Part shown: piece after piece, positions 47,079 through 64,000 of the stretch
How the letters are laid out: each line of letters begins with the position of its first letter
How positions within the stretch are numbered: the first letter of the stretch is position 1
Source of the DNA: Oscillospiraceae bacterium
Lineage (GTDB): Bacteria > Bacillota > Clostridia > Oscillospirales > CAG-272
Direction of reading: 5' to 3'
Assembly (NCBI GenBank): GCA_015065385.1
Contig: SVQK01000056.1
Span: forward strand, 270,983-334,982
Length of the DNA stretch: 64,000 nucleotides
Made by a program: the position numbers and the translations under genes
The notes under the pieces: generated by a model
Databases searched by the model: none
What the model saw: only the letters and a program-made list of their open reading frames with translations
What the model was told of the DNA's origin: nothing

Positions 47079-47126
47079 GAAGCCAGTTAAAGAACTTTAG
47101 CGGATTTCCGCGATAGGAGGTTTACC

Positions 47127-48185: not shown

Positions 48186-48211
48186 CGAGAACACGAGAAG
48201 GAGTGTAACCG

Positions 48212-49144: not shown

Positions 49145-49145
49145 C

Positions 49146-52021: not shown

Positions 52022-52051
52022 AGAATCGGGTTTGAAATTGCAATGAGGAGG
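52020..52051 (+). repeat. 32-bp direct repeat, copy 1 (gene junction plus RBS)
   Basis: GAAGAATCGGGTTTGAAATTGCAATGAGGAGG, identical to 52730-52761. Confidence 0.9.
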
Positions 52052-52057
52052 TGCGGG

Positions 52058-52396: not shown

Positions 52397-52745
52397 GTTT
52401 GAAACTATGGCACAACCCAAAGCGCGAAAACAGCACAAATGCTATTTGTGCGGGTATCCGATTGTCTATGGTGAGCGCTATTTCCGCCATTCGGGAAAGT
52501 GTGACGGGGAGTTCTTCGATAACTGCTACCATGAGGAGTGTTCCGATCTGATAGAATCCTACTGCCGTGAGTTCATGGAAACAGAATGGGACCGTGATGC
52601 CATAAGTGAGTGGCTGAGTGACCGTTATTGCCGTGATTGTCGGCATGGAACAGAACAAGACGATGATTGCGAAGTCTCTGTTCTCCTGTGTCGGTCGATC
52701 CGTGCAAAATACAGAGCAGAGCACAGACAGAAGAATCGGGTTTGA
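52389..52745 (+). CDS. Cys-rich hypothetical protein (118 aa)
   Basis: ATG 52389. The sequence KCYLCGYPI...CYHEEC...YCRDCRHG suggests zinc binding. Confidence 0.55.
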   Translation: MIEFETMAQPKARKQHKCYLCGYPIVYGERYFRHSGKCDGEFFDNCYHEECSDLIESYCREFMETEWDRDAISEWLSDRYCRDCRHGTEQDDDCEVSVLLCRSIRAKYRAEHRQKNRV

Positions 52746-52761
52746 AATTGCAATGAGGAGG
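52730..52761 (+). repeat. 32-bp direct repeat, copy 2
   Basis: Identical to 52020-52051. Here the upstream stop codon lies inside the repeat in a different frame. Confidence 0.9.
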
Positions 52762-52765
52762 CTGG

Positions 52766-52984
52766 ATGAAACGAATAATCTGTGATCGGTGTAAGGTCGA
52801 ATATGCACCTGCTCCGGATTGGACGCAAGTCCCGAAGTTTGAGTACCGGGTGCGTTACTACTATTACGGCGGAGGAACGTATAGAGCCGCGACTTTGGAC
52901 CTCTGCCAAGAATGCCAGAAAGATCTGGACGAGTTCATCAAGGCAAAAAGCAAAATCCAGAAAGGGGATAGCACAGATGATTGA
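52766..52984 (+). CDS. Zn-ribbon small protein (72 aa)
   Basis: CDRC...CQEC pattern, with the RBS supplied by the repeat. Confidence 0.55.
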   Translation: MKRIICDRCKVEYAPAPDWTQVPKFEYRVRYYYYGGGTYRAATLDLCQECQKDLDEFIKAKSKIQKGDSTDD

Positions 52985-53113
52985 CACGGAATGGCTGAAC
53001 GCGGCTATCGCCACGATCCAATCCGGGATAGCCGACAAGCTGACGAAGGGGAACGTCACTGTTTACCGGGTGCTCAATATCATAAGAATCGACATCAACT
53101 TGGGGGCGGGAAA

Positions 53114-53347
53114 ATGAATAAGTTGCTGGGTTTCCTAAAACGTTGTCAGCGGAATCGGAACAAGCCGGATCTGCATTCATTCTGGATCGAGATAGACGGC
53201 GGCAGAGCGTATGTAGACTGTGACGGGGACGGTGTGTACATAGAGGCCCACACCTCTGCCGGGATAGCCCGTTGGCGAGGAAACCTCGTCGAAGCGGCTA
53301 ACAGGCTATCCGATTCCGGGGCGGTCTTCGGATCCATCGATATGTGA
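53114..53347 (+). CDS. Hypothetical small protein (77 aa)
   Basis: ATG 53114 inside track ORF 52991..53347. Confidence 0.45.
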   Translation: MNKLLGFLKRCQRNRNKPDLHSFWIEIDGGRAYVDCDGDGVYIEAHTSAGIARWRGNLVEAANRLSDSGAVFGSIDM

Positions 53348-53365
53348 AGTGAGGAGCTGAAAAAG

Positions 53366-53551
53366 ATGAAAGGCAACGAAATCAAAGAGACAGATCGCAA
53401 ACGATGGGAGAAAGCCGGAATGATCCCCGCTGCTTGTCGCTTTTGTGGGGAGATTATGCTTTTCCCGAAGGAAACCTATAAAACGGAGCAGTTAGCCGGA
53501 TATGAGTGTGCGAACTGCAAGGCGCTTATGCGTATGTTCGGGAGAAGGTAA
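53366..53551 (+). CDS. Zn-ribbon small protein (61 aa)
   Basis: CRFCGE...CANC pattern. Confidence 0.5.
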   Translation: MKGNEIKETDRKRWEKAGMIPAACRFCGEIMLFPKETYKTEQLAGYECANCKALMRMFGRR

Positions 53552-53555
53552 GCGG

Positions 53556-53867
53556 ATGAGCGACTTTGTAAGCCGTCAATGGCTGATTGATGAATACCAC
53601 CGGAGGCATCAAGGACCTCCGGGCGGTGCGCTGAAAATGATCGAAGAAGCTCCCGCCGCCGATGTGGAGCCGGTAGTTCATGGGTTCTGGTACTTACGAG
53701 GTGGACGCCCATGTTGCTCCGTGTGCAATACAAAGGCGCTTTGGAAAGACGAGGGCGGGACTGGCGGGTTCTCACACGAATACGTCGGAGCCAAAAGCAA
53801 ACGATGTCCGGAGTGCGGGGCCAGAATGGATAAGGGAGGAAAAACAGATGATAAAAATACTGTGTGA
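53556..53867 (+). CDS. Small Zn-ribbon protein, AADVEPV-HG-W paralog 1
   Basis: MSDFVSRQWLIDEY...APAADVEPVVHGFW...CSVC...CPECGARMD. Confidence 0.55.
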   Translation: MSDFVSRQWLIDEYHRRHQGPPGGALKMIEEAPAADVEPVVHGFWYLRGGRPCCSVCNTKALWKDEGGTGGFSHEYVGAKSKRCPECGARMDKGGKTDDKNTV

Positions 53868-54132
53868 TAAGTGCGGGGCTGATTGCGACAGAGTTTCCTT
53901 TGCGGTGTCCGTTTCATTGATTCATAATCCGAGCCCTTTGTATGTAGGGGATACCGGCAACCCCACGTTAACCGACGAACCCAATAAACATGTGCAGTTC
54001 ATTCTTTGTCAAGATTGCTATACAAAGTTGGGGCTTCCGAACGTGTACTTACAACGCCCTAACAGCAAGCGTATCGCATGGCGAGAGACCGATGGGGACA
54101 GCGATGCCAAAGAGGTCAGTGATGCCGAATAA
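53848..54132 (+). CDS. Zn-ribbon small protein (94 aa)
   Basis: MIKILCDKCGADC...CQDC pattern. Confidence 0.5.
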   Translation: MIKILCDKCGADCDRVSFAVSVSLIHNPSPLYVGDTGNPTLTDEPNKHVQFILCQDCYTKLGLPNVYLQRPNSKRIAWRETDGDSDAKEVSDAE

Positions 54133-54508
54133 CGAGTATGTTTTGCGGAGCGATGCGCTGAAAGCTGTCTGTGAGAACTGCTCTATGCACGGATCGGACG
54201 GAGAGCCTTGTTCGAGTAGATGCGAAGATTATGCGCTGGTTCAGAAGATCCCCGCTGCCGACGTGGAGCCTGTGAAGCACGGATATTGGGTTTATAAGAT
54301 GCGGGAGCGAAACAAATGCGAGTTTGTGTCCGGCTTTGATCACTTGGGGGATTGGCACACTATAACCGTGATTACTCATGTCAAAGGGCCTGTTCCTTAT
54401 TGTGGATTGTGTGGTGCGCTGGCTGCGGAAAGTTTTCTGGATCATTGCCCGAGGTGCGGCGCGAAGATGGACACCGAACCGCCGAAGGAGGAAGATAATG
54501 CTGATTAA
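54122..54508 (+). CDS. Small Zn-ribbon protein, AADVEPV-HG-W paralog 2
   Basis: IPAADVEPVKHGYW...CGLC...CPRCGAKMD. Confidence 0.55.
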   Translation: MPNNEYVLRSDALKAVCENCSMHGSDGEPCSSRCEDYALVQKIPAADVEPVKHGYWVYKMRERNKCEFVSGFDHLGDWHTITVITHVKGPVPYCGLCGALAAESFLDHCPRCGAKMDTEPPKEEDNAD

Positions 54509-54743
54509 ATTCACAGGTAACACTCCGGATAATTTGGCCGCATATATCAATCCCGCATATGTATCTGCTGTATTGCCACGGCGCAATATATTAACAGGGG
54601 AAGTCCTTGATGGAACTTCAATCTATTTGGTAGGCGATGAAAGACCCATACATGTGAAGGAAGAGGTGGAAGAGGTCGTTGATACGATATTGAAAAGCAC
54701 TATGGTGACATTCCTTGTTCCGGATCCGCCAAAGGAGGACTAA
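54498..54743 (+). CDS. Hypothetical small protein (81 aa)
   Basis: ATG 54498 after GGAGGAAG. Confidence 0.5.
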   Translation: MLIKFTGNTPDNLAAYINPAYVSAVLPRRNILTGEVLDGTSIYLVGDERPIHVKEEVEEVVDTILKSTMVTFLVPDPPKED

Positions 54744-54747
54744 ATAA

Positions 54748-54942
54748 ATGACAGTTTGTGACCGATGCAGAAAAGAACTCCATGATCGGGTAGTTATTCG
54801 TAGGTGCATAAGAATATTCGGGAATATCATTTTTAGCGAAGACGGTATTTTGTGTAAGGAGTGCTGGAACGATTTCAAGCGGTTCATAACGCCGATTACT
54901 ACAAAGCCGTCGAAGGAGAAGGACGATGAAAAAGCAGATTGA
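54748..54942 (+). CDS. Zn-ribbon small protein (64 aa)
   Basis: CDRC...CKEC pattern. Confidence 0.5.
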   Translation: MTVCDRCRKELHDRVVIRRCIRIFGNIIFSEDGILCKECWNDFKRFITPITTKPSKEKDDEKAD

Positions 54943-55246
54943 TATAGAAGACAGCATAGGTATTATTCAGAAGGTTGCCAACAACGGGAAAATGCTGTGG
55001 GAACTCCATGAGGGAGAAGTGGTTTCGATCACATACAACCGCTATTCAGGGCGGCGAGTTAAGGCGAGGGGTTTTTATACCTTTGATGACGACGCTATAA
55101 CCGACATCGAAAACAATACCGCGTGGTTGAAAGAATCCCCCGCATTGACACTTGTAAATGAACCGTTTATCCTGACGGACGAGCTGAGACAGCGAGCGAA
55201 CCGGTGGATCGAAACTCAGAACGCAAGAGGTGATGACGATGCCTGA
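54926..55246 (+). CDS. Hypothetical protein (106 aa)
   Basis: Coupled ORF whose stop lies inside the ATGCCTGA junction. Confidence 0.55.
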   Translation: MKKQIDIEDSIGIIQKVANNGKMLWELHEGEVVSITYNRYSGRRVKARGFYTFDDDAITDIENNTAWLKESPALTLVNEPFILTDELRQRANRWIETQNARGDDDA

Positions 55247-55640
55247 ACGCCTGAAACGCGTGTACGCATTCCAATGCCCGCATTGTGGCCGAGAGATCAA
55301 ATACAACCGAAACTACTACGACAAGAAGATAGCTGAGCTGAAAGCGTCCATCACGAGCATCCATGCCCAACTGACGGAGCATAAAGACGACGGGGATCCT
55401 GATTGGAAGAAACGGTGCGTTGCGGCAAAGGGAGCTATGGAACAGCAGCTCGCAGAGCTGAAGAGTTTCCGGGCCGAGGCTAATGTGCTCGTGAAAGAAC
55501 GAATTGATGATGCTTTCAAAGGGGTGGTAAAAGAGAAGATAGGAGAGGAAAACTACATCAAGTGGATGCAGGAGGCCGAACAGCGGATTGAGTACGCCGA
55601 TACCAAGGAGCTGATGCGACATGACGGGGGAGGCGTTTGA
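55239..55640 (+). CDS. Zn-ribbon plus coiled-coil protein
   Basis: MPERLKRVYAFQCPHCGREIKY... followed by a helical region. Confidence 0.55.
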   Translation: MPERLKRVYAFQCPHCGREIKYNRNYYDKKIAELKASITSIHAQLTEHKDDGDPDWKKRCVAAKGAMEQQLAELKSFRAEANVLVKERIDDAFKGVVKEKIGEENYIKWMQEAEQRIEYADTKELMRHDGGGV

Positions 55641-55641
55641 A

Positions 55642-56067
55642 ATGCCTGATCGAGAAAAAACGATAAAGGGCTTAGAGCATTGCACGAGGTTGTTTGATTG
55701 CAACGGATGCCCGTATTTTTCCAAAGGAATTGATCAGAAGACTTGTATGCTACGAAATGGAAAAGACGCCCTTGCCCTGCTAAAAGCGCTGGAGCCGCGG
55801 TTGCTGACGCTCGAAGAAGTGCTGAATGCTGACGATTTTGTGTGGGCTGAAATTTATACTCCTAAAAAATGGAGTTGGTGCGTTGTCTATGCCAAGATCA
55901 GTCCGCTTGTAGGTAACGATGAGATTGTGTTAATCGAAGAGGACTGCGGAACCGGGTGGGCGAGGAACAAGGCGGAATACGGCAAGCGTGGATTCCTTGA
56001 TGGCGGCTGGCGGTGCTGGTCTGTGCGGCCTACGGAGGATCAGAGGAGAAATGAACCGTGGCAATAA
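55642..56067 (+). CDS. WRCW-family paralog B
   Basis: MPDREKTIKGLEHC...CNGCPYF...DALALLKALEPRLLTLEEV...GGWRCWSVRPTEDQRRNEPWQ. Confidence 0.6.
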   Translation: MPDREKTIKGLEHCTRLFDCNGCPYFSKGIDQKTCMLRNGKDALALLKALEPRLLTLEEVLNADDFVWAEIYTPKKWSWCVVYAKISPLVGNDEIVLIEEDCGTGWARNKAEYGKRGFLDGGWRCWSVRPTEDQRRNEPWQ

Positions 56068-56678
56068 ACGATTTAACCGGGAGCGTATTTGGAAGATGGA
56101 CGGTCATTAAACCAAGTACAAAAACATCTTACTTTGTTTGTGAATGTTCATGTGGAATTATCAAGGATGTTCGGAGAGACCATCTTTTGAGTGGTAAGTC
56201 CAAATCATGTGGCTGTTTGGTAAAAGAAGGTCATTCGCGGATTTATAAAGGGAGACCTGATCGGCGGTCGCTCAATCGTGTGTACGGTTGTATGATTGGT
56301 AGATGTTATAATACTAAATCCGATTCATATGCTTATTATGGCGGCAGAGGAATAACGGTATGTGATGAGTGGAAAGAATCATTTGATGTATTTGCTGAAT
56401 GGGCATATGAAAATGGGTATAAAACAGGATTAACTATTGATAGAATCGACAATAATAAGGGATATTATCCAGAAAACTGTAGAATTGTTACCAAGCAGGA
56501 ACAGAACAACAACAAAAGGAACAATGTAGTTTTGTTAATTGATGGTGTCCGATATACTGTAACTCAAGCGGCGAACAAAGCCGGGATAAAACCTTCAACA
56601 GTATTTAATTGGATATATCGAGGGGCAACGAAAAATGAGGTGATTTCAAAACTAAAGGCGGTGAAGTGGGATGCCTGA
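56058..56678 (+). CDS. AT-rich acquired gene: DNA-binding protein of the YGGRGI...DRID type (freestanding homing-endonuclease-associated/AP2-like family)
   Basis: FGRWTVIKPS...CECSCG...SCGC; YAYYGGRGITVCDEWKESFDVFAEWAYENGY...LTIDRIDNNKGYYPENCRIVTKQEQNNN. The gene is visibly lower in GC than its flanks. Confidence 0.6.
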   Translation: MAINDLTGSVFGRWTVIKPSTKTSYFVCECSCGIIKDVRRDHLLSGKSKSCGCLVKEGHSRIYKGRPDRRSLNRVYGCMIGRCYNTKSDSYAYYGGRGITVCDEWKESFDVFAEWAYENGYKTGLTIDRIDNNKGYYPENCRIVTKQEQNNNKRNNVVLLIDGVRYTVTQAANKAGIKPSTVFNWIYRGATKNEVISKLKAVKWDA

Positions 56679-57051
56679 GCGGAAAAAGGTGATGTTAGAA
56701 ATCGAAAAAGCTATCAATGAAGCTGACAGCACGGCGGCGTTTGCGCTTATACTGACGCACACGTTGAGGGACGCCCTCGCCCTGCTGAAGGGGCAGGAGG
56801 CGCGGGTAGTCAATGTTGGCGACTTCTACGGTGGAGAATTTGGCTATCTTGAATACAGGTCGGACAGACCGAGCTTCTCAAATTTTGAGCCAAGTCCCGT
56901 GCTGATAGGTGACATCGACGAGGAAAACGTCACTGTTATATTCCGTAGTGCTTCGGTACAAAAGCTACAGTTGGACAGGATGAACAAAAACTGGCGTATA
57001 TGGAGCGAATATCCGACGCATGAGTTGTTAAGGACGGTGAAGTGGGAATGA
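56671..57051 (+). CDS. WRCW-family paralog C (divergent)
   Basis: LRDALALLKGQEARVVNVGDF...KNWRIWSEYPTHELLRTVKWE. Confidence 0.55.
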   Translation: MPERKKVMLEIEKAINEADSTAAFALILTHTLRDALALLKGQEARVVNVGDFYGGEFGYLEYRSDRPSFSNFEPSPVLIGDIDEENVTVIFRSASVQKLQLDRMNKNWRIWSEYPTHELLRTVKWE

Positions 57052-57521
57052 GGATCACACCAGAAATGATGGTCGAAGACGAACAACGATGGCATGCCCG
57101 AGACGTGATCACGGAACTCGGCTATTGCGGAAGTTACATGCGTGACCGAAAAGACATGACAAACCTTGACATTCGGTTTTATGCCTACCTCATGCGCAAG
57201 GCGCACGATATGCTGAAGGAGCAGGAGCCAAGGGTGATGACGCTCGAAGAGGTGTGTAATCTGAAATATGACGATGTTGTCTACTATCAAGGGATCAATA
57301 CGAATTCCGTGGAGAGCGCTATTGTTCTTCACGGGGAAAAAATGGTTCCAGAGGTAAACACAAGAGTTGTCCAGTTTAGACACGCTGACGGAACTGGTGG
57401 ATGGAACGGTATCAATAATGCCGATCTGAATGGGTACGGTAAAAAATGGCGGTGCTGGTCTGCCCGTCCGTCAGAACGGCAGATGCGGGACACGCCATGG
57501 GAAGGAGAGAATGATGCCTGA
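57048..57521 (+). CDS. WRCW-family paralog D
   Basis: AHDMLKEQEPRVMTLEEV...GYGKKWRCWSARPSERQMRDTPWEGE. There is an ATGA overlap with the upstream gene. Confidence 0.6.
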   Translation: MRITPEMMVEDEQRWHARDVITELGYCGSYMRDRKDMTNLDIRFYAYLMRKAHDMLKEQEPRVMTLEEVCNLKYDDVVYYQGINTNSVESAIVLHGEKMVPEVNTRVVQFRHADGTGGWNGINNADLNGYGKKWRCWSARPSERQMRDTPWEGENDA

Positions 57522-57768
57522 ATATCATCTTGGGGTTTCCCCGATTACCAACACGATCTACGCCGGGACGCTAAACAAGGCGAAGACGATGTGGCTGAAC
57601 AAAAGTGACGTTACCGATGAAGCGGTCGCCTGTGTTCGGGACCATCTGAAACGACTCGCAGACGACGAACCGGATTCCAAATTCGGGTACGAGTGGGATC
57701 TGAAAGACGGAGGAAAAGTTCAGCTGCTTGTTAAGATTTTACCGAAGGAGGAGACCGAAAATGCCTGA
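57514..57768 (+). CDS. Hypothetical small protein (84 aa)
   Basis: ATG lies in the ATGCCTGA junction. Confidence 0.5.
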   Translation: MPEYHLGVSPITNTIYAGTLNKAKTMWLNKSDVTDEAVACVRDHLKRLADDEPDSKFGYEWDLKDGGKVQLLVKILPKEETENA

Positions 57769-58120
57769 TATCAAGCGAACCATAGACCAGATGAAGAGGC
57801 TCGAAGAAACGGTTGGAGACTCCACCATGCAGGGGGCCGGTCAGGTTCTCCGGGATGCCATTGCGCTTTTGGAGGCGTATCAGAAGGTTCCGAAATGGAC
57901 CCCGGTAACGGAAGGCCTCCCGCCTCAGTTTGAGGTTGTCTGGGCCACGGATGGCGAAGATGTCGGCCTTGCAGCTCTGCAGGGATTCTGCAATGACGAG
58001 CCACTGTGGACCGGTGTCTGGAATTTAGACTATCTGGATGATCCGGACGATGAAGACTACCTCCCCATCATCAAATGGAAGCCGCTCGAAACGCTCCCGG
58101 ATCCGAAAGGGGGTGAATGA
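57761..58120 (+). CDS. Hypothetical protein, DUF551-like C-terminal half
   Basis: VPKWTPVTEGLPPQFEVVWATDGEDV...IIKWKPL pattern. Confidence 0.5.
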   Translation: MPDIKRTIDQMKRLEETVGDSTMQGAGQVLRDAIALLEAYQKVPKWTPVTEGLPPQFEVVWATDGEDVGLAALQGFCNDEPLWTGVWNLDYLDDPDDEDYLPIIKWKPLETLPDPKGGE

Positions 58121-58182
58121 GTCCGTTTTACCCACGAAGCCAAGAGTCAATCAAACCGAAAATGCAAGAAAGGAAATATCAC

Positions 58183-60234
58183 ATGAGGTTTCACGAATTC
58201 AAAGAACAGCTTGCCAGCCATTTTGCGGCGGCTGTAGGAAACGGCTATCTGTACGAGACTGATGCCGACAAAGATAGGCTGTGGGAGATTTATCTTTCCA
58301 GCTTCCCGAGCGGATCCAACCCGATCTACCGCGTCCGGACGGAGCATGATTGTTCCTGTTGCCGCCATTTCATCAAGGAAATCGGTCGAACCGTGATCAT
58401 CGACAAGGATCTGAATGTTCACAGCATCTTCGACTTTGAGGCTGGGGATGCGAACTATCAGGCCGTGCTTGATGCTATGCGGGATTATGTCCAGTCCTGC
58501 ACGATTGTCGGGGTTTACCTGTCCCCTACTGCTACGGTAGGAACCCCGCGTACACAGGAGAGATCTGAAAGCGGGACGATCATCACCTACGAGCACTACA
58601 GCTTGGCTCTTCCCGCCCGTCTTGTACACCGTTCGAACAGAACCATCGACACCGACAAAGGCCAGTTCCGGGACACCCGTAACGTGTTCAAGCGGTCGTT
58701 GACCGAAATAACGGCGGAGGCTATCGAAACCGTTCTGGAGCTGATTCGGTCGAACACCCTGTACAAGGGCGCAGAATGGGAAAAGCAGATCAACGACCTG
58801 CTGAACTGTAAGCGGGAATTCGATTCCCTTACTAACGCGAAGAAGGACGCCTATTGCTGGGCTAAAGCCAGTGAGGTTGGTCCGGTTCTCGGCAGAATCC
58901 GCAATCACAGCATCGGCAAGTTACTGACCGATATTTCCGAGGGGGTGGACCTCGACGCGGCAGTCAGGGCATACGAGCTGATTGTTGCGCCGACGAACTA
59001 TAAACGCCCGAAAGCGATCTACACCCAGAAGATGCTGGAAGAGGCCCAGAAGACGGTCGTCGAAATGGGCTACATGGATTCTCTCACCAGACGCTATGCG
59101 ACCCTCGACGATATTACCGTCAACAACATCCTCTTTTCCAACCGGGATTCGGCAAAGCGGATCGGCGGGAGCGTGTTTGATGAGATGAAGTCCAGCATCC
59201 CGTTTGATCCGAAGAAGTTCAACCGCTTCGAAGAAATCGGGATAGAGAAATTCGTGGCCGATGTTCTCCCGACTGCAACCGAGGTGGAAGCCTTCGTCGA
59301 AAACCGTCACGCTTCCAACTTTGTGTCTTTGATCGCCCCGGTCAACCGGGAGGCTAAGTCCATGTTCAAATGGGATAACGGGTTCTCGTGGGCATACGCC
59401 GGGAACTTGACGGACAGCGATATTCGGGAAAACGTCAAAAATGCCGGAGGCCGCGTGGACGGCGTTCTGCGGTTCAGCATCCAGTGGAACGACGAAATAG
59501 AGTGGAACCGAAACGATCTCGATGCGCATTGCCGGGAACCCAATGGGTATGAGATTTTCTATATACGGAAGCGGGACGAATCGTCCGGGGGTAACCTTGA
59601 TGTAGACATCATCAATCCCCAGAAGAACGTTCCGGCTGTGGAAAACATAACCTTCCCCACAAAAAACAAGATGAAGCCCGGACGGTATGAATTCTTCGTC
59701 CACTGTTTCAGCAACCGGGGAGGATCGGATGGGTTCAAGGCAGAAATCGAGTTTGACGGTCAGATTTACCGCTTTGAATATAGGAAGCCCATACGCCAGA
59801 ACGAGAATGTTCCCGTTGCCACTGTTCTTCTGGATGAAAACAGAGAGTTCCGGATGGTAGAGGCTCTTCCCAGCTCTGATGTTTCCGGGAGGGAGATCTG
59901 GAATGTTAAGACCCATACCTTTACCCCTGTGTCCGTTGTGATGCACTCCCCTAATTATTGGGACGACCAGCAGGGGATCGGTCATAAACACTACTTCTTC
60001 ATGCTCAAGGGGTGCATAAATCCCGAGAATCCGAATGGGTTCTACAACGAGTTCTTGAAGTCTGAACTTATCGATCATAAGCGGGTGTTTGAAGCACTCG
60101 GGTCAAGAATGGCTGTCGCTCCCTCTGACGATCAGTTATCCGGCGTCGGATTCAGTTCTACGAAACGAAATGACCTGATCGTGAAGGTTCGCGGAAACAG
60201 CGGCATGGAACGTGTTATGAAAATCAAATTCTAA
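58183..60234 (+). CDS. Large orphan protein (683 aa from ATG 58183; track start 58117)
   Basis: ATG 58183 after GAAAGGA. The N-terminus has HDCSCCRHF. The C-terminal ~200 aa (RFSIQWNDEIEWNRNDLDAHCREPNGYEIFYIRK...GGNLDVDIINP...VENITF...GRYEFFVHCF) recalls the DUF2135/YfaP-type beta-domain, with low certainty. Confidence 0.65.
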   Translation: MRFHEFKEQLASHFAAAVGNGYLYETDADKDRLWEIYLSSFPSGSNPIYRVRTEHDCSCCRHFIKEIGRTVIIDKDLNVHSIFDFEAGDANYQAVLDAMRDYVQSCTIVGVYLSPTATVGTPRTQERSESGTIITYEHYSLALPARLVHRSNRTIDTDKGQFRDTRNVFKRSLTEITAEAIETVLELIRSNTLYKGAEWEKQINDLLNCKREFDSLTNAKKDAYCWAKASEVGPVLGRIRNHSIGKLLTDISEGVDLDAAVRAYELIVAPTNYKRPKAIYTQKMLEEAQKTVVEMGYMDSLTRRYATLDDITVNNILFSNRDSAKRIGGSVFDEMKSSIPFDPKKFNRFEEIGIEKFVADVLPTATEVEAFVENRHASNFVSLIAPVNREAKSMFKWDNGFSWAYAGNLTDSDIRENVKNAGGRVDGVLRFSIQWNDEIEWNRNDLDAHCREPNGYEIFYIRKRDESSGGNLDVDIINPQKNVPAVENITFPTKNKMKPGRYEFFVHCFSNRGGSDGFKAEIEFDGQIYRFEYRKPIRQNENVPVATVLLDENREFRMVEALPSSDVSGREIWNVKTHTFTPVSVVMHSPNYWDDQQGIGHKHYFFMLKGCINPENPNGFYNEFLKSELIDHKRVFEALGSRMAVAPSDDQLSGVGFSSTKRNDLIVKVRGNSGMERVMKIKF

Positions 60235-60253
60235 AGCCAAGGAGGATACATCA

Positions 60254-60631
60254 ATGGCTAACCTGTTCGAAATCGCATCTAAAAAGAAGTACCGCTTCCC
60301 CTACAAGGGACCCATCGGTACGGAGGATCTGTGGGATTTGGCCCCCGCCCAGCTTGACAGTGTCTACAAGGTCCTGAATAAGACGGTGAAGGCGCAGGGC
60401 GAGGACAGCCTCATGGACAATTCCGGTGTGGACGAAGACCTGAAAAACCAGATCGAGATCGTCAGGTACATCTACACCGTGAAGAAGGAGGAGGCCGCGG
60501 CGAAGAAGACCGAGGCCGAAAATAAAGAGAAGAAGAAGATCGTCATGGAGATTCTCGCGGAAAAGCAGAACGCCGCCCTTCGGAATATGTCCGAGGAGGA
60601 TCTCCAGAAGATGCTGGAGGAATTGAATTGA
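60254..60631 (+). CDS. Hypothetical protein (125 aa), Lys/Glu-rich C-terminus
   Basis: AGGAGG RBS. Coupled downstream of the 683-aa gene. Confidence 0.6.
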   Translation: MANLFEIASKKKYRFPYKGPIGTEDLWDLAPAQLDSVYKVLNKTVKAQGEDSLMDNSGVDEDLKNQIEIVRYIYTVKKEEAAAKKTEAENKEKKKIVMEILAEKQNAALRNMSEEDLQKMLEELN

Positions 60632-60645
60632 TCTTGGGCTTCCTC

Positions 60646-60679
60646 GAAGCCCGCGCCTTCACAACCGGGCGCGGGCTTC
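60646..60679 (+). other. Perfect 12-bp GC-rich inverted repeat (hairpin, no T-tract)
   Basis: GAAGCCCGCGCC (60646-60657) and GGCGCGGGCTTC (60668-60679) with a 10-nt loop. Confidence 0.6.
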
Positions 60680-60705
60680 GGCCCGTATATAAAAGGAGGA
60701 AAGCC

Positions 60706-61119
60706 GTGAAAGATGCAGATAGAAGACGTAAGTATTATGAAGCGGAGTATGCCAAGGCCTACCGTCGCAAAGCCGCGGGGCTGTGTGTGTCGTGCGGTGG
60801 ACCGGTTACCGGGGTAAACCCTTCAACGGGGAAAGCCTACGTCAATTGCACCGCTTGCCGGGCCGAGAAGTTAGCACGAAAAAAGATGCGAGCTGAGGAA
60901 AGTCGCATTGAGGCCGGGCGTACCACCTACCGGCAATACCGGGCGACGAATCCGAATGATGATCCTATCGAAGGGGATGCTCAGGAGATTGCACAGCTTC
61001 TTGGGTTATCCGTGATCTACGTTCGGGCCTTAGCCCGCAGTCACAAAACTACGAGACGTGGTTGGTCGATAGTTCAGATAGGAGGGTCGGATGAAAGCAA
61101 GAGTTCCCTCTCGGTATGA
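60706..61119 (+). CDS. Zn-finger plus HTH-like small protein
   Basis: GTG 60706 lies 6 nt after AAAGGAGGA; the track start 60628 would run through the hairpin. CVSCGG...CTAC pattern. The C-terminus AQEIAQLLGLSVIYVRALARSHK is HTH-like. Confidence 0.5.
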   Translation: MKDADRRRKYYEAEYAKAYRRKAAGLCVSCGGPVTGVNPSTGKAYVNCTACRAEKLARKKMRAEESRIEAGRTTYRQYRATNPNDDPIEGDAQEIAQLLGLSVIYVRALARSHKTTRRGWSIVQIGGSDESKSSLSV

Positions 61120-61525
61120 AAAAGAACTGCGAAAGGAAGCGGATAAGGTGTTGACAGAAATGGCGAAGCAAACGAAAGCGGCCCTCGCAGCGGAGGTGGA
61201 AACCGAGCTCAAGGCACGCGTTGAGGCGGCGAACAAGGCCTATGAGTTGGAACTTGATGCGCTGGTGCTGTGGACGCTCCATGCGCGGTTTGGGTTCGGT
61301 TACAAGCGCCTGTCGGCCTTCTATGAGGCCCTGTTTCAAGAGCGGCAGGAGTTGCACAATCGGTATCTGCCAGCTGCGCCGGATTACAGCGACAACGGGG
61401 TTGAGTCCGGGGTGGCGTACCATCGGCTTCGGGATTTCGGGTACGATGTGAAGACCCATTTTGCCGAATTGAACGCAAAGTACCCGATCCAGACTTTTCC
61501 GGAAAATGAAAAAACGGAGGGGTGA
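61091..61525 (+). CDS. Hypothetical protein (144 aa)
   Basis: ORF with a GGAGGG RBS, ending inside the bidirectional terminator. Confidence 0.6.
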   Translation: MKARVPSRYEKELRKEADKVLTEMAKQTKAALAAEVETELKARVEAANKAYELELDALVLWTLHARFGFGYKRLSAFYEALFQERQELHNRYLPAAPDYSDNGVESGVAYHRLRDFGYDVKTHFAELNAKYPIQTFPENEKTEG

Positions 61526-61542
61526 AATACCCCTTCCGTTTT
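61511..61542. terminator. Bidirectional rho-independent terminator between convergent genes
   Basis: AAAACGGAGGGG tgaaata CCCCTTCCGTTTT. Confidence 0.7.
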
Positions 61543-61548
61543 CACGGG

Positions 61549-61770
61549 TTACAGTTCGGATGAATCCAAAGCATCCGGGCGGTATTCATCCGCCGCGATT
61601 CTGGCCCGGACCGCTTGCGCTACCAGATCCGTGATGGATCGGTATTTTTCCGGGTACTTGGCGACGTGATCGGCCATCTCAGCCTTTAGTCCTTTGGGTA
61701 AGGCGAGGCTCATTCTATCATAATGATCGTTGATGAAGGCGTTTGCCTTCCGGGAGGCTTCTCCTGCCAT
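61549..61770 (-). CDS. Ribbon-helix-helix (Arc/CopG-like) DNA-binding protein; the only minus-strand gene
   Basis: Start ATG at 61770 after AGGAG. In MAGEASRKANAFINDHYDRMSLALPKGLKAEMADHVAKYPEKYRSITDLVAQAVRARI, the segment DRMSLALPKGLKAEM fits an RHH beta-strand followed by helices. Confidence 0.6.
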   Translation of the reverse strand: MAGEASRKANAFINDHYDRMSLALPKGLKAEMADHVAKYPEKYRSITDLVAQAVRARIAADEYRPDALDSSEL

Positions 61771-61861
61771 GTTCGGCTCCTTTTTACACAAAAGTTTACT
61801 TATAGTGTAACACATTCCGGCTGTTCTTACAAGAGGCAACTTGCACAATTTCTACCTGTAC

Positions 61862-61921
61862 GTTTGTGTAGTATATGTTCCGAAAAAGGCTTGATATTCT
61901 GCAAGAGTAGAGGTAGTATGT
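61862..61921 (+). promoter_or_regulatory. Promoter/operator element, copy A
   Basis: GTTTGTGTAGTATAT...TTGATA (61891-61896), 17 nt, TAGTAT (61914-61919). The core TTGATATTCTGCAAGAGTAGAGGTA is identical to copy B. Confidence 0.6.
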
Positions 61922-61974
61922 AGGCACAACCGAAGAACGAAACCTAATAGAGCACAATGCTAAAGGAGGCAAAC

Positions 61975-62253
61975 ATGAGCACGAACGAGCTGATTGCGAA
62001 GATCGAGGAGTTGCGGGGCCTTGAGGAACTGGTTAAGGAGGCCGAGCAGGAGATCGAAGGGATCAAGGATTCCATCAAGCAGCAGATGAACGACGCGCAG
62101 ATCGAGGAGCTTGAGGCCGGGACGCACATCATTCGGTACACCACGGTGATCAGCGACCGCTTCGACAGCACCCGGTTCAAGAAGGAGCACGGGGACATGT
62201 ACCGGGAATACAGCCGGAAGTCCACCAGCAGACGGTTCACGATCAGCGACTGA
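61975..62253 (+). CDS. Coiled-coil small protein (92 aa)
   Basis: ATG 61975 lies 6 nt after AAGGAGG. Confidence 0.6.
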   Translation: MSTNELIAKIEELRGLEELVKEAEQEIEGIKDSIKQQMNDAQIEELEAGTHIIRYTTVISDRFDSTRFKKEHGDMYREYSRKSTSRRFTISD

Positions 62254-62272
62254 GCCGCAGAACCACGAGCGA

Positions 62273-62299
62273 AGCGCCCGCCTTCTACAGGCGGGCGCT
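62273..62299 (+). other. 10-bp GC hairpin (possible attenuator/terminator, no T-tract)
   Basis: AGCGCCCGCC ttctaca GGCGGGCGCT. Confidence 0.45.
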
Positions 62300-62341
62300 G
62301 ACCCCTACCTCGTCGCCCGCGGGGGAAGAAAGGAGCTAACA

Positions 62342-62629
62342 ATGAAGTACAGCGTTAAGTTCAGTTGCGGCCATACTGAGACCAAGGAACTGTTCGGAAA
62401 GGTTTCCGAACGGGAACGCAGGATTGCTTGGTGGGAGCAGAACGGGATTTGCACCAACTGCTATCTGGATCAGAAAGCCATCGAGAATGCCATCGGCCAC
62501 CACGAGGTTGAGATGTTCTACGGCGACTACAAGCGCGACTACGCCAAGTGCAAGACGAAGCCGGGAAGTTACAACGGCGACACAAAAACGATCATCGTTT
62601 TCGTGCCGGATGAAGCGCCCGTCTGCTAA
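62342..62629 (+). CDS. Hypothetical protein (95 aa)
   Basis: ORF after a GGAG RBS. Cys pattern KFSCGH...CTNC. Confidence 0.55.
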   Translation: MKYSVKFSCGHTETKELFGKVSERERRIAWWEQNGICTNCYLDQKAIENAIGHHEVEMFYGDYKRDYAKCKTKPGSYNGDTKTIIVFVPDEAPVC

Positions 62630-62660
62630 AGCGGGCCTAACCTGATTATGGAGGAAGCAA

Positions 62661-63122
62661 ATGGAGAAAATAGCGAGTTTCAAAATCAACCACGACATGC
62701 TGACACGAGGGTTGTACATCTCCCGCGTTGACGGAGATGTCATTACCTACGACCTCCGGATGAAACTGCCCAACGGTGAAGACTACCTCGCTCCCGCTGT
62801 GGCACACACCCTTGAACACCTTCTTGCCACCTACCTGCGGAACTCGGAGATTGGAAACGAGGTGGTGTACGTCGGTCCGATGGGGTGCAGGACCGGGTTT
62901 TACATATTGTTACGGGACACCGTAAGCCCTGAAGCAGCTATCGTGGAAATCTACACGGCCCTGTGCGTCGCCGCGAATTACATGGGCGACATCCCCGGAG
63001 CGACGAGAGCCGAGTGCGGGAACTACAGGGATCACGACCTCGTGGGGGCGAGAATAGAGGCCCGTAAGATGCTCCCCATTCTGCGTATGTGGACAAAGGG
63101 TCAACTAAAGTACCCCGAATAA
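62661..63122 (+). CDS. luxS: S-ribosylhomocysteine lyase (autoinducer-2 synthase)
   Basis: SFKINHDML, the metal-binding HTLEHLLA, PMGCRTGFY and CGNYRDHDL are colinear with E. coli LuxS (HTLEHLFA, PMGCRTGFY, CGTYQMHSL). Confidence 0.9.
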   Translation: MEKIASFKINHDMLTRGLYISRVDGDVITYDLRMKLPNGEDYLAPAVAHTLEHLLATYLRNSEIGNEVVYVGPMGCRTGFYILLRDTVSPEAAIVEIYTALCVAANYMGDIPGATRAECGNYRDHDLVGARIEARKMLPILRMWTKGQLKYPE

Positions 63123-63145
63123 AACACACAAGTACGCCGCTCTAA

Positions 63146-63205
63146 GTTTGTGTAGTTTATTTTCAGGTATGGGGTTGATATTCTGCAAGAGTAGAGGTAA
63201 TATGT
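63146..63205 (+). promoter_or_regulatory. Promoter/operator element, copy B
   Basis: GTTTGTGTAGTTTAT...TTGATA (63175-63180), 17 nt, TAATAT (63198-63203). Confidence 0.6.
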
Positions 63206-63268
63206 GCATGTAAATAAACACCGCCTACGCGCGGGCAAGCCTGACAGGGCAGAAAGAGGAACCCCACA

Positions 63269-63871
63269 ATGAAGATGGTCGAAATCAAACTTAGAAGCAC
63301 TACCGCGGAACTTGAAAAGCTCGAAGCACGGGAGGCCAAGGCCGAGGAACGGCTCCAGAAAGCGATTCACAAGGCTCAGAAGCTGAACGCGGATTTCCCC
63401 ACGGTCGAGGCTTACAGGGCTTGGATGGACACCGTTGAGACCGACGAGATAGGCTTCATAGTAAACAAGGCCGACATTGACCGCAACGGCGCATACCGGG
63501 CCATGGGGATGGCACAGGACGATCTGGACGACATAAGAGACCGGATCGCAAAAGCCGAGGCCCGGGTTGAGAAGGCGCAGGTCGAGGTTGACGCTTACCA
63601 CACGGAGATGCAGAAGCAGCTCGACCACGAGGCCTTCGAACGGCTGATGGAAGCCGAGTTCGAGAAGGAACAAAAAGAGTGGGCGAAGGACGGCGTCAAG
63701 CTCGAGGGGCGGTACTACGGAGAAACCCCGAAGGGCGAACGCTTCTGGATCGAGGGCAACAACGGGTTCACCGAACGGAGCCGCCACTGCTTCACCCTGA
63801 CGGTTGGAGGCCGGACGATTTTCACGAGCGGCGAATTCTGGAGATGCTACGCCACGATCAAGAACGCCTGA
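63269..63871 (+). CDS. Hypothetical protein (200 aa), coiled-coil N-terminal half
   Basis: ORF downstream of promoter copy B. Confidence 0.6.
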   Translation: MKMVEIKLRSTTAELEKLEAREAKAEERLQKAIHKAQKLNADFPTVEAYRAWMDTVETDEIGFIVNKADIDRNGAYRAMGMAQDDLDDIRDRIAKAEARVEKAQVEVDAYHTEMQKQLDHEAFERLMEAEFEKEQKEWAKDGVKLEGRYYGETPKGERFWIEGNNGFTERSRHCFTLTVGGRTIFTSGEFWRCYATIKNA

Positions 63872-63931
63872 CGAAACATAGCCCGCCCCTCCGAGGGCGG
63901 GTAAGCCCGGAAGGGCGGAAAGGACATCGAC

Positions 63932-64000
63932 GTGAAATACACACTCGAATACAACGGCAGGAAGGTCGTCCGCATTGCCGACACCGCACAGGCCGCCGTT
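63932..64000 (+). CDS. 3'-truncated ORF (runs off window end)
   Basis: GTG 63932 after GGAAAGGA; open to the end of the window (VKYTLEYNGRKVVRIADTAQAAV). Confidence 0.35.
   Translation, partial: MKYTLEYNGRKVVRIADTAQAAV

Follow-up and report, generated by a model that had tools for sequence, protein, structure and literature searches.

The gene luxS encodes an enzyme of the activated methyl cycle whose reaction also yields the precursor of the signal molecule AI-2, and a copy of it was met among phage genes in a stretch of DNA of 64,000 nucleotides (the whole of which is hereafter referred to as the window). This raises the question of whether this copy is intact and truly phage-borne and, if so, what a phage might gain from it.

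The luxS Gene and Its Product

The product of luxS (Table 1) matches the Pfam family PF02664 with an E-value of 3.5e-44 and 150.7 bits (the gathering score being 27 bits), from position 1 to position 145 of the 154 of the profile, and its best solved relative is the LuxS of D. radiodurans (1inn, E=6e-23). The gene, preceded by a GGAGG ribosome binding site (62650-62654) placed 6 nt 5' of the ATG, is full-length, the nearest homologues being likewise 153 aa long and aligning from end to end. The three LuxS motifs are HTLEHLLA (aa 49-56), PMGCRTGFY (aa 73-81), and CGNYRDHDL (aa 119-127).

LuxS is a homodimer, in which N-terminal residues of the partner subunit complete the active site. In the B. 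subtilis numbering, we take the metal triad to be His54/His58/Cys126 (the two His of HxxEH and a C-terminal Cys) and the catalytic pair to be Cys84 (in GCxTG) and Glu57 (in HxxEH). In the phage protein, the metal ligands H49, H53, and C119 align with their counterparts in 1inn and 1joe, the catalytic residues are E52 (in HTLEH) and C76 (in PMGCRTGFY), and the N-terminal active-site residues S6, H11, and R33 are conserved; all these residues are invariant among 22 LuxS homologues. The AF2 model of the protein has a pLDDT of 94.3 and a pTM of 0.89, and a Foldseek search of the PDB retrieved LuxS structures as all of its top 18 matches (TM 0.72-0.83, normalised on the query length), the next match having E=0.015. 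The preliminary description of this DNA had recognised a full-length LuxS of 153 aa bearing the three motifs and had called for an exact alignment of the catalytic residues; the PF02664 match, the residues, and the predicted fold agree with this identification, and the alignment with 1inn, 1joe, and the 22 homologues revealed that all of them are kept. On these grounds, the product is a complete LuxS with all the catalytic hallmarks, for which the cleavage of S-ribosylhomocysteine (SRH) is predicted.

Organization of the luxS Region

The gene luxS is the third and last gene of a three-gene unit located behind the promoter module P1, which corresponds to the small operon described earlier. The consensus scan of P1 disclosed a -35 box TTGATA (61891-61896) and a -10 box TAGTAT (61914-61919) separated by a 17-nt spacer, i.e., the same element (61891-61919) that had been put forward as a phage promoter. 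The modules P1 and P2 form a 66-nt direct repeat (83% identical), and the 25-nt promoter core has an exact second copy at position 63175, that is, two copies in the window versus zero expected from shuffled sequences. Two further core copies follow downstream in an 82.5-kb contig identical to the window, giving four in tandem near the prophage end, and one diverged copy lies near the terminase region. In the related locus L003, the hexamers of P1 are kept and the spacer is changed; P2 (-35 TTGATA, 63175-63180; -10 TAATAT, 63198-63203) is kept in both L003 and the related locus L001. These motifs suggest that P1 is a sigma-70-like promoter, part of a phage-specific promoter family.

Table 1. 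Features of the luxS region (positions within the window).
Feature	Positions	Strand	Basis or remarks
Small divergent ORF, 73 aa	61549..61770	-	ORF list; called on the identical contig
Putative promoter module P1	61856..61921	+	Consensus scan; upstream box GTTTGTGTAGTATATGTT
First gene of the luxS unit	61975..62253	+	92 aa (98 aa from an upstream ATG)
GC-rich hairpin after the first gene	62273..62299	+	RNA fold -25.5 kcal/mol, z=-5.3
Second gene, Cys/His-rich phage protein, 95 aa	62342..62629	+	phrog_16123, E=1e-11
luxS, S-ribosylhomocysteinase (LuxS, EC 4.4.1.21)	62661..63122	+	153 aa, ATG start, TAA stop
Putative promoter module P2, second repeat copy	63140..63205	+	Consensus scan; candidate promoter of the next unit
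200-aa phage gene downstream of luxS	63269..63871	+	Viral homologues

Directly upstream of P1 lies the sole minus-strand gene of this region, whose 73-aa product has no Pfam match and a weak PHROG match (phrog_13890, E=5e-4), is kept in L003 with 77% identity, and may be a local regulator, ribbon-helix-helix-like by eye. The product of the first gene of the unit, called as 92 aa also on the identical contig, shows similarity to the C-terminal portion of RecE-like exonucleases and Gam-like proteins (phrog_434, E=1e-16; phrog_6244, E=3e-16) and is 97% identical in L003. The hairpin that follows it has no U-tract and therefore does not qualify as a canonical terminator; together with a similar repeat it brackets the 95-aa gene (repeat D18, 62271-62290 and 62612-62631). 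The latter gene is present in L001 (95%) and precisely missing from L003, where luxS comes directly after the first gene, so that it is dispensable for the linkage of luxS. Between luxS and P2 there is a weak hairpin alone (-6.5 kcal/mol, z=+0.4), and no clear terminator was found after luxS. The 200-aa protein encoded further downstream has homologues (44-49% identity) in three IMG/VR viral contigs, in one of them mid-way in a 100-kb contig.

Prophage Location of luxS

The window harbors genes for terminase, portal, protease, major capsid, sheath, tape measure, and tail proteins and, judged from this gene content, is a contractile-tailed prophage distantly related to the Faecalibacterium phage FP_Brigit. 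Of the isolated phages, the latter comes closest in its major capsid protein (59.5% identity); no nucleotide-level similarity to it (NC_047909) was found in window positions 44000-64000, nor did tblastn disclose any LuxS match in it. No tRNAs are located within the window. The 82.5-kb contig, whose overlaps with the window are 100% and 99.98% identical, shows what lies 3' of luxS: about ten further genes, small and of phage type, among them an HTH regulator and a member of phrog_38037 (E=4e-43), after which come a tRNA-Gln gene and pfk, spoIIAA, spoIIAB, and sigF of the host. Thus, luxS is placed 5.1 kb inside the inferred right prophage end, which adjoins tRNA-Gln, and genes of the families phrog_1735, phrog_2018, phrog_434/6244, and phrog_16123 lie upstream of it. 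Since about ten phage-type genes separate luxS from the inferred tRNA-Gln/host junction, the gene is phage-borne, i.e., a cellular-type gene with viral genes on both sides, as is proper to a viral auxiliary metabolic gene. The claim that the DNA at luxS is that of a phage and not of the host is hence upheld, with the qualification that the phage is integrated in a bacterial chromosome as a prophage; its host is best explained as a spore-forming Oscillospiraceae/Ruminococcaceae bacterium. The exact sequence of the 200-aa neighbour was retrieved in 10 contigs from 10 samples, and luxS is present in every one of these contigs that extends upstream, its frame being intact in all copies (at least 8 samples).

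As for phage collections, megablast of window positions 44000-64000 against 50,697 phage records gave no match, and tblastn of LuxS matched 13 records, five of which were examined. MT835476 is bacterial DNA (dnaN, parB, rsmG, pfs, rnpA, yidC), as are MT835487 and MT835691 (PTS/glycosidase and response-regulator contexts, with pfs adjoining luxS) and, by eye, the UNVERIFIED_ORG records OR846587 and OR845006 (RNase J, dapA, asd, or S. aureus housekeeping genes). The other records matched were MT835582, five from Listeria phages, a second one from a Staphylococcus phage, and the Salmonella genome record AGRM01000002. Judging from the gene content of the five examined records (five out of five), many "phage" LuxS matches in the public collection are evidently host contamination.

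Phylogeny and Selection of Phage luxS

The LuxS of the window groups with three other proteins (P0001, 95%; P0002, 78%; P0003, 71%) in a phage clade sharing 71-95% identity, and P0001 and P0002 share the same phage context. The nearest chromosomal LuxS proteins (Oscillospirales/Clostridia) are 63-66% identical and embedded in conserved bacterial neighbourhoods, and the sister-clade protein P0009 is found in chromosomal contexts of unrelated samples. The phylogenetic comparison with bacterial luxS suggested in the preliminary description therefore separates a phage clade from its chromosomal relatives. In a scan of a genome collection, the best LuxS among the matches listed was 58% identical, with an Oscillospirales neighbourhood, and the enzyme is widespread in Oscillospirales among the matches listed. 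The GC3 of luxS is 0.70, like that of other phage genes, versus 0.50 in the closest bacterial luxS. The gene probably came from a Clostridia chromosome, and its capture would be old enough for it to have acquired the base composition of the phage and to form a phage clade of its own.

The dN/dS of luxS is 0.29 in three pairwise comparisons (dS 0.10-0.58), which points to purifying selection in the phage. The LuxS of L003 is only 78% identical, and the dS of luxS (0.56) is similar to that of the 200-aa neighbour (0.51); recombination is not needed to account for this divergence, and faster non-synonymous change may suffice.

Linkage to Methyl Cycle Genes

The same phage encodes a 261-aa MetK-like protein (phrog_1569) in which the HPDK and the C-terminal GGG/GKD motifs are kept and most of the central domain is missing, so that its activity is uncertain. 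The gene directly adjoins that of a 415-aa ParB_N + N6_N4_Mtase protein; this pair maps about 70 kb away from luxS in the prophage and belongs to another transcription unit. No Pfs/MTAN was found in the phage (tblastn, 79.4 kb), and no methionine synthase is encoded by it; the host would thus be needed for two steps of the cycle.

A search of IMG/VR with a single LuxS protein gave no match, and one carried out with a LuxS alignment disclosed at least 17 loci (best identity 51%), a number to be read as a lower bound since the phage lineage studied here is missing from IMG/VR under the patterns used. Among these loci, a ParB-type methyltransferase is present in 10/17, MetK in 8/17, a MetE-like protein in 3/17, and Pfs in 2/17. 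MetK and/or the ParB-type methyltransferase lie near luxS in 12/17 of them versus 1/88 of the LuxS loci from bacteria (Fisher's test: p=4e-11 with contigs as units, and about 3e-4 with lineages as units and this phage left out), the methyltransferase queries having been taken from viral loci and 8/17 of the viral loci representing one lineage. Different arrangements were observed. In L021, the order is MetK, methyltransferase, MetE-like, LuxS, and TerS, followed by TerL and portal (both confirmed); L026 has the same order, with an unassigned 268-aa ORF in the MetE-like slot and a confirmed portal. L020, seen from the methyltransferase on, reads methyltransferase, MetE-like, LuxS, TerS, and the genes of L017 are arranged as Pfs-LuxS-MetK.

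Possible Roles of Phage LuxS

The preliminary description had considered two roles for this gene, one in the activated methyl cycle and one in the manipulation of community signalling; the genomic context favours the former, and the latter comes out as the less favoured of the two. Given the MetK-like protein and the ParB-type methyltransferase of the phage, and the same linkage in the IMG/VR loci, we hold with moderate confidence that a functional LuxS of a temperate phage sustains the activated methyl cycle, AI-2 being a by-product. The phage ParB-type N6/N4 DNA methyltransferase would convert SAM into SAH; host Pfs would turn SAH into SRH; phage LuxS would split SRH into homocysteine and DPD; and SAM would be remade by host methionine synthase together with the MetK-like protein of the phage (or host MetK). 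In this way, LuxS might keep the cycle turning while phage DNA replicates and is methylated. DPD, and hence AI-2, would be an unavoidable by-product, and signalling may change too. Such a role presupposes that the enzyme is active and suitably timed in its expression, and flux through the methyl cycle, not AI-2, would be the selected benefit. Several points weigh against it: the distance and separate transcription of the MetK-like/methyltransferase pair, the reliance on the host for Pfs and methionine synthase, the incomplete MetK-like protein, the viral origin of the methyltransferase queries and the weight of one lineage among the viral loci, and a non-synonymous change in luxS about three times as fast as in its neighbours. 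In addition, SAH, the inhibitor of methyltransferases, is removed by Pfs and not by LuxS, and a sigma-70-like promoter near the inferred right end would equally suit a lysogenic-conversion gene.

The opposite emphasis, namely that signal manipulation itself was selected, with extra AI-2 altering the quorum-sensing behaviour of the host or of its neighbours or AI-2 serving as a density cue for the choice between lysis and lysogeny, seems unlikely. The behaviours in question would be defence, biofilm, and competence. LuxS chemistry necessarily gives DPD, the promoter is of host type, luxS stands among early/accessory genes near the inferred prophage end, quorum-sensing genes are known on phages (reviewed in PMC7790227), and the LuxS of L010 has neither MetK nor the methyltransferase within 18 kb. 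However, no AI-2 receptor or transporter domain emerged among the Pfam assignments of the examined phage genes: neither a LuxP/LsrB-type binding protein nor a dCACHE domain nor an Lsr gene was found in about 79 kb of phage (the 14-41 kb structural region being covered by PHROGs for large genes only), so that the pairing of a synthase with a phage receptor or response module, by which a phage communication system would be recognised, is not seen here. Moreover, such communities probably have plenty of AI-2 already, given how widespread LuxS is in Oscillospirales (among the matches listed), and viral luxS mostly travels with SAM-cycle and DNA-methylation genes and not with regulators. A bolder form of the same idea, in which prophage LuxS is a communication device, is improbable; lysogens or infected cells would release additional AI-2 thanks to an array of promoters near the inferred prophage end that the host can read, and this universal signal would feed back on induction or lysogeny decisions or on the defences of neighbouring species. 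The phage would then draw on the interspecies AI-2 channel instead of a peptide signal of its own; in a weaker form, the prophage would make a luxS-less host an AI-2 producer. Somewhere between these two in likelihood, and thus still doubtful, is lysogenic conversion, by which LuxS would be given to a host having no chromosomal copy or a poor one, so that the lysogen would benefit from a complete Pfs/LuxS pathway for recycling SAH and from AI-2 production. The integration beside a tRNA-Gln gene, the closeness to the inferred right end (5.1 kb), a promoter readable by host sigma-A, the fixation of luxS in the sampled phage population, and an identity of merely 63-66% with any chromosomal LuxS found would all fit. 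On the other hand, the same promoter core heads three more units arranged in tandem, whose small genes are typical early phage genes, and hence looks like the mark of a co-regulated early region and not of a single insulated accessory gene; luxS is not followed by a clear terminator, and, among the matches listed, luxS is generally present in relatives of the probable host group.

The remaining alternatives deny the gene a function or a place in the phage. It is very improbable that luxS is a neutral passenger, gained by illegitimate recombination, with no role in the phage and heading for decay. Its non-synonymous change is about 3x faster than that of the neighbouring genes (a threefold dN/dS), its divergence is concentrated in the C-terminal two thirds, and it is missing from more distant relatives having the same neighbouring 705-aa gene; yet its dN/dS is well below 1 over dS values of up to 0.56, the catalytic and metal residues are all invariant in the phage clade, the base composition is already phage-like, and none of the copies has a broken frame. 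That luxS is part of the host chromosome, or of a different integrated element beside the prophage, is largely refuted and hardly credible. It is true that an annotated bacterial MAG contains the identical protein (NCBI MBE6725136.1, Ruminococcaceae/Oscillospiraceae, contigs up to 543 kb), that the right prophage end is the only one in view, and that all the examined INPHARED "phage" records matching LuxS are bacterial DNA. Nevertheless, luxS is flanked by phage-family genes on both sides, one promoter family spans it and the units beyond (with the diverged copy by the terminase region), the tRNA/host junction lies past it, its composition is that of the phage, and the neighbourhoods of bacterial LuxS are entirely different.

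If LuxS is active, the prophage would equip a gut or rumen Clostridia host with an additional activated-methyl-cycle step and a source of the AI-2 precursor. The fact that phage luxS is found again and again in the company of a ParB-type DNA methyltransferase, MetK, and a MetE-like enzyme, and frequently beside packaging genes, suggests that some phages bring their own supply line for DNA methylation, whose purpose is probably the shielding of phage DNA from restriction. To read viral luxS plainly as "quorum-sensing manipulation" in virome surveys may therefore mislead, and this phage represents a well-delimited, widely sampled test case for phage LuxS function.

Comparison with Known Systems

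The phage protein has the same family, length, and fold as the bacterial LuxS enzymes (PF02664; 1INN of D. radiodurans, 1JOE of H. influenzae, 1J98 of B. subtilis), with which it shares the HxxEH + Cys metal site and the catalytic Cys/Glu. Unlike them, it is encoded in a prophage, belongs to a clade of its own, and has a phage-like GC3, and its gene is not beside pfs or the usual chromosomal neighbours.

The gene luxS has been catalogued as a viral auxiliary metabolic gene of the methionine/SAM cycle, notably in human-associated viromes (Kieft et al. 2021, bioRxiv 10.1101/2021.01.05.425418), and one LuxS gene has been reported in digester phages (PMC13644194). Viral luxS is under purifying selection and is sometimes accompanied by mtnN or other methionine-cycle genes (10.1101/2021.01.05.425418; PMC13644194), and among viral auxiliary genes MetK is an abundant one (bioRxiv 10.1101/2021.01.05.425418). 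The catalogued genes are the same kind of object, i.e., luxS on viral contigs, and the phage studied here is a clean example of them and not a new kind; they are survey listings, whereas here the boundary, the clade, the promoter, and the linkage to MetK and the ParB-type methyltransferase are described for one phage. The preliminary description was not aware of a characterised example; in the literature searched, neither a biochemically characterised phage LuxS nor any measurement of its effect on SAM-cycle pools, phage methylation, or AI-2 output was found.

Genes of bacterial cell-cell signalling pathways are likewise carried by other phages, such as the agr cassette of the C. difficile phage phiCDHM1, VqmA of vibriophage VP882, and LuxR-type receptors (PMC7790227, PMC4124054). 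Those systems have a receptor or a dedicated signal-processing module, whereas LuxS is in the first place an enzyme of metabolism, and the Pfam assignments for about 79 kb of this phage include no AI-2 sensor. Viral MetK and the SAM-degrading enzyme of T3 belong to the same SAM/methylation economy as phage LuxS. The T3 enzyme degrades SAM, thereby disabling host restriction; LuxS, in contrast, stands on the recycling side and would sustain the use of SAM.

Identity and Integrity of LuxS

The ORF assigned to luxS runs from ATG to TAA, encodes 153 amino acids, and is preceded by a GGAGG sequence located 6 nt ahead of the start codon. Its translation contains the motifs HTLEHLLA (aa 49-56), PMGCRTGFY (aa 73-81), and CGNYRDHDL (aa 119-127), and it matches the Pfam family LuxS PF02664 (E=3.5e-44; 150.7 bits, the curated cutoff being 27 bits), with positions 1-145 of the 154-position profile covered. 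Matches were also obtained with nine distinct LuxS sequences of solved structure, the top one being that of D. radiodurans (1inn, E=6e-23); the motifs of the metal site and of catalysis line up with theirs column by column. Aligned with 21 homologues, the protein has among its invariant residues S6, H11, R33, H49, E52, H53, C76, and C119. By established LuxS structural work, this set covers the N-terminal active-site residues of the family, its HxxEH...C metal triad, and its catalytic Glu/Cys pair. The top 18 PDB fold matches of the AlphaFold2 model (pLDDT 94.3, pTM 0.89) are all LuxS (query-length-normalised TM 0.72-0.83), and the match ranked after them has E=0.015. The gene is intact and full-length; the preliminary description, which had recognised an apparently full-length LuxS from the three motifs, is borne out by the translation, the Pfam match, and the alignment with solved structures, in which the catalytic residues E52 and C76 are unaltered.

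Phage Context and Inferred Prophage Boundary

The window clearly represents a tailed phage, since the structural genes reported in the table match PHROG families; downstream of the tail genes are an amidase, a transglycosylase, and numerous small ORFs. The closest isolate is Faecalibacterium phage FP_Brigit, whose capsid protein is 59.5% identical, and no nucleotide-level match to the region 44000-64000 was found among 50,697 phage records.

Coordinates of the features discussed in the text (window positions unless an extension or viral locus is named; L122 and L116 are the left and right extensions of the same phage)
Feature	Position	Strand	Remarks
MetK-like and ParB_N/N6_N4 methyltransferase genes	L122 1450-3479		adjacent; 5-7 kb to the left of window position 1, between small and large terminase
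Diverged promoter core copy	L122 7354	-	near the terminase region
Large terminase	46-1482	+	PHROG match
Portal	1532-4387	+	PHROG match; C-terminal NUDIX hydrolase domain fused
1162-aa protein	7437-10925	+	head-gene region
ADP-ribosylglycohydrolase	11313-12233	+	
Head protease	14623-16485	+	PHROG match
Major capsid	17038-18072	+	PHROG match
Tail sheath	20805-21944	+	PHROG match
Tape measure	23196-25670	+	PHROG match
Large tail proteins	32570-40899	+	PHROG match
1994-aa tail protein	34915-40899		
VR	40750-40887		
TR	41062-41199		
Reverse transcriptase	41319-42398		RVT_1
Endolysin-type amidase	43095-43841	+	
347-aa protein	49295-50338	+	
Exact 32-nt direct repeat	52020-52051, 52730-52761		710 nt apart
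73-aa ORF	61549-61770	-	divergent from P1
66-nt direct repeat	61856-61921, 63140-63205		P1, P2
Promoter core copies	61891, 63175; L116 12290, 14067		tandem; L116 copies window-equivalent ~64950, ~66727
92-aa gene	61975-62253	+	resembles C-terminal part of RecE/Gam-like proteins
Hairpin-forming repeats	62271-62290, 62612-62631		
95-aa gene	62342-62629	+	Cys/His-rich; second gene of P1 unit
luxS	62661-63122	+	
tRNA-Gln(ttg)	L116 15569-15641	opposite	window-equivalent ~68229-68301
luxS cluster, viral locus L020	86-2828		
luxS cluster, viral locus L021	61-3957		
luxS cluster, viral locus L026	2543-7015		
luxS cluster, viral locus L017	9295-11718		97.8-kb viral contig

Other features of this phage deserve mention. 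The 1162-aa protein bears an ADP-ribosyltransferase toxin domain (PF03496, with Alt- and Bxa-like PHROGs), and its gene is followed, after a small ORF, by that of an ADP-ribosylglycohydrolase; the pair may represent an injected host-modifying enzyme with its antidote. A diversity-generating retroelement is also present, in which a 138-nt repeat occurs both at the 3' terminus of the gene for the 1994-aa tail protein (VR) and as a template just upstream of the reverse transcriptase (TR); the two differ at 15 positions, and the template has an adenine at 14 of them. An S-layer homology domain in the endolysin-type amidase hints at a host S-layer. The 347-aa protein is an unusual fusion of HTH_3, sigma-70 region 4, and the RNA polymerase alpha C-terminal domain, which might redirect host RNA polymerase, and each copy of the 32-nt repeat, ending in a ribosome-binding site, lies upstream of a small gene.

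The exact LuxS protein is found in public data as MBE6725136.1, under the name of a Ruminococcaceae/Oscillospiraceae MAG and on contigs of up to 543 kb, so that a location in the host chromosome, already considered in the preliminary description, had to be taken seriously. An 82.5-kb ENA contig, 100% identical to positions 1-14387 of the window and 99.98% identical to positions 52661-64000, extends beyond it at either end. On the right, luxS is followed there by a 200-aa gene and then 10 small same-strand genes, among them one of family phrog_38037 (E=4e-43) and one for an HTH_3 regulator; the last phage gene is followed by the tRNA-Gln gene and, past it, by phosphofructokinase (pfk) and the host sporulation genes spoIIAA, spoIIAB, and sigF. 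From this succession we infer a prophage whose right end abuts the tRNA gene, the likely integration site, with luxS about 5.1 kb inside that end. On the left, luxS is preceded by the phage families phrog_1735 (705 aa), phrog_2018, phrog_434/6244, and phrog_16123, and on the right the 200-aa gene has homologues within other IMG/VR viral contigs; luxS is thus flanked on both sides by phage genes. The phage is integrated in a bacterial chromosome, yet the claim that it carries luxS holds.

Putative Promoters and Organization of the luxS Operon

The 66-nt direct repeat, whose copies P1 and P2 lie ahead of the luxS unit and after luxS, holds a sigma-70-like promoter (TTGATA, 17 nt, TAGTAT/TAATAT). 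A 25-nt core is present in the window in two exact copies, with no occurrence expected, and the 31-nt core TTGATATTCTGCAAGAGTAGAGGTA[AG]TATGT is near-identical between copies, spacer included. Four tandem copies head as many small operons at the prophage right end, and the identity of their spacers suggests that the copies might share a common regulator. In L003, a related phage contig, both hexamers are retained and the spacer is altered, as predicted for a real promoter. P1 is predicted to drive, in this order, the 92-aa gene, the 95-aa gene, and luxS, in keeping with the small operon previously proposed behind a promoter at 61891-61919.

The hairpin located 3' of the 92-aa gene is strong and devoid of a U-tract, that located 3' of luxS is weak, and the 95-aa gene lies between two similar repeats that can form hairpins. 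This gene is precisely absent in L003, where luxS directly follows the first gene, so that the 95-aa gene has no functional tie to luxS; it looks as if it had been gained or lost via recombination between the bracketing repeats.

Origin and Evolution of the Phage luxS

The closest relatives of this LuxS, sought among 5.8 billion proteins, are P0001 and P0002 (95% and 78% identity, both in the same phage gene order) and P0003 (71%, on a contig too short to show its context); the next matches (<=66%) lie in conserved bacterial neighbourhoods, i.e., pseudouridine synthase-LuxS-nitroreductase or aminotransferase-LuxS. In the neighbour-joining tree the four sequences form one clade nested among Clostridia sequences, and the family neighbourhood (one genome per species, among the matches listed) includes Oscillospiraceae, Acutalibacteraceae, Ruminococcaceae, and Faecalibacterium. 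The GC3 of luxS (0.70) is like that of the other phage genes (0.62-0.87) and unlike that of the closest bacterial luxS genes (0.50), so that the capture was not recent; the preliminary description had left recent capture and a phage lineage side by side.

The dN/dS ratio of luxS among phage copies is 0.29 vs. 0.08-0.10 for neighbouring genes, indicating that it is under purifying selection, looser than that acting on its neighbours. In distant phages with the 705-aa neighbour at 51-62% identity, luxS is missing within 10 kb. The exact 200-aa neighbour was retrieved from 10 contigs of 10 samples, seven with a complete luxS and two more with its probable 3' end, and every contig reaching upstream carries the gene. 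Hence, luxS is a lineage-specific acquisition that became fixed in this phage species.

Methyl-Cycle Genes in This Phage and in Other Viral Loci

In the left extension, as read from the 82.5-kb contig, the large terminase is preceded by the gene of the small terminase and then by those of a MetK-like protein of 261 aa and a ParB_N + N6_N4 DNA methyltransferase of 415 aa, this last pair being followed by Amidoligase_2 and GGACT genes. The MetK-like protein (39.6 bits on S-AdoMet_synt_N; phrog_1569) is truncated, lacking most of the central domain; it retains the HPDK motif of SAM synthetases and, at its C-terminus, their GGG/GKD motifs. A search of the window and its two extensions (79.4 kb in all) found no Pfs/MTAN homologue.

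Seventeen IMG/VR LuxS loci, a lower bound obtained by LuxS alignment search, were compared with 88 bacterial loci within the fetched flanks. A ParB-type N6/N4 methyltransferase lies near luxS in 10 of the 17 viral loci and in none of the bacterial ones; the corresponding counts are 8/17 and 1/88 for MetK, 3/17 and 0/88 for MetE-like proteins (Meth_synt_2), 2/17 and 7/88 for Pfs, and 12/17 and 1/88 for MetK or methyltransferase. Fisher's exact test between viral and bacterial loci gave p=4e-11 by contig and ~3e-4 by lineage, this phage excluded, with methyltransferase queries taken from viral loci and eight viral loci belonging to one lineage.

L020, L021, and L026 carry compact cassettes that run MetK, ParB-type methyltransferase, MetE-like, LuxS, and small terminase; MetK falls outside the L020 sequence, and in L026 a 268-aa ORF devoid of Pfam matches occupies the MetE-like position. 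The large terminase and portal come next in L021, where both were confirmed, as was the portal in L026. The order Pfs-LuxS-MetK occurs in L017. L013 combines MetK, LuxS, anaerobic ribonucleotide reductase, and methyltransferase, and L010, a genuine phage context (SSB, HNH endonuclease), has no MetK/methyltransferase partners. The luxS of L016 may belong to the host flank, as it is found at the edge of the contig and outside a serine integrase; in L012 and L015, too, the gene is near a contig end.

Possible Function of the Phage luxS

On the basis of the co-occurrence of luxS with methyl-cycle and methyltransferase genes, we favour a role in sustaining SAM-dependent methylation of phage DNA, with AI-2 as a by-product. 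The methyltransferase would convert SAM to SAH, Pfs would convert SAH to SRH, LuxS would convert SRH to homocysteine and DPD, and methionine synthase and MetK would regenerate SAM. Against this role stand the distance of ~70 kb between luxS and the MetK-like/methyltransferase pair, the truncation of the MetK-like protein, the dependence on the host for the Pfs step, and the fact that LuxS itself does not remove the inhibitory SAH.

Manipulation of signalling through AI-2 has in its favour that the LuxS reaction necessarily releases DPD; however, the phage genes yielded no AI-2 sensor (Pfam over ~79 kb; PHROGs on large genes only at 14-41 kb) and, among the matches listed, LuxS is widespread in relatives of the host, so we consider it rather unlikely. 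Lysogenic conversion of a host devoid of luxS appears a still more doubtful explanation. Selection, composition, and fixation make a neutral passenger improbable, and the boundary analysis largely excludes a host gene outside the phage, a reading to which we give hardly any credit. The interpretation of the preliminary description is therefore supported, with its emphasis moved from signalling to support of the methyl cycle.

Comparison with Known Viral luxS Genes

Virus-borne luxS is already known as a category: it is one of 11 viral auxiliary gene families handling methionine and homocysteine, and belongs to the six that account for 97% of these genes in samples associated with humans (Kieft et al., bioRxiv 10.1101/2021.01.05.425418). 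The same study reports dN/dS <1 and mentions genomes with luxS and mtnN and with metK and dcm. A 2026 digester study describes one phage LuxS, read as quorum sensing (PMC13644194), and a review of phage quorum sensing names none (PMC7790227); the literature searched yielded no work on a phage LuxS by enzymatic or genetic means.

The five LuxS-matching INPHARED records that were opened (MT835476.1, MT835487.1, MT835691.1, OR846587.1, and OR845006.1) were rejected, being bacterial DNA filed as bacteriophage with ordinary chromosome around luxS, e.g., dnaN-parB-rsmG-pfs-luxS-rnpA-yidC or, by eye from translations, RNase J-dapA-asd-luxS; one further match is a Salmonella genome record. Hence, well-supported isolate examples of phage luxS appear to be lacking, and misfiled bacterial records inflate the apparent counts of phage-borne metabolic genes. 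The luxS gene of this phage offers a clean example with good delimitation and wide sampling, and a useful entry point for experiments.
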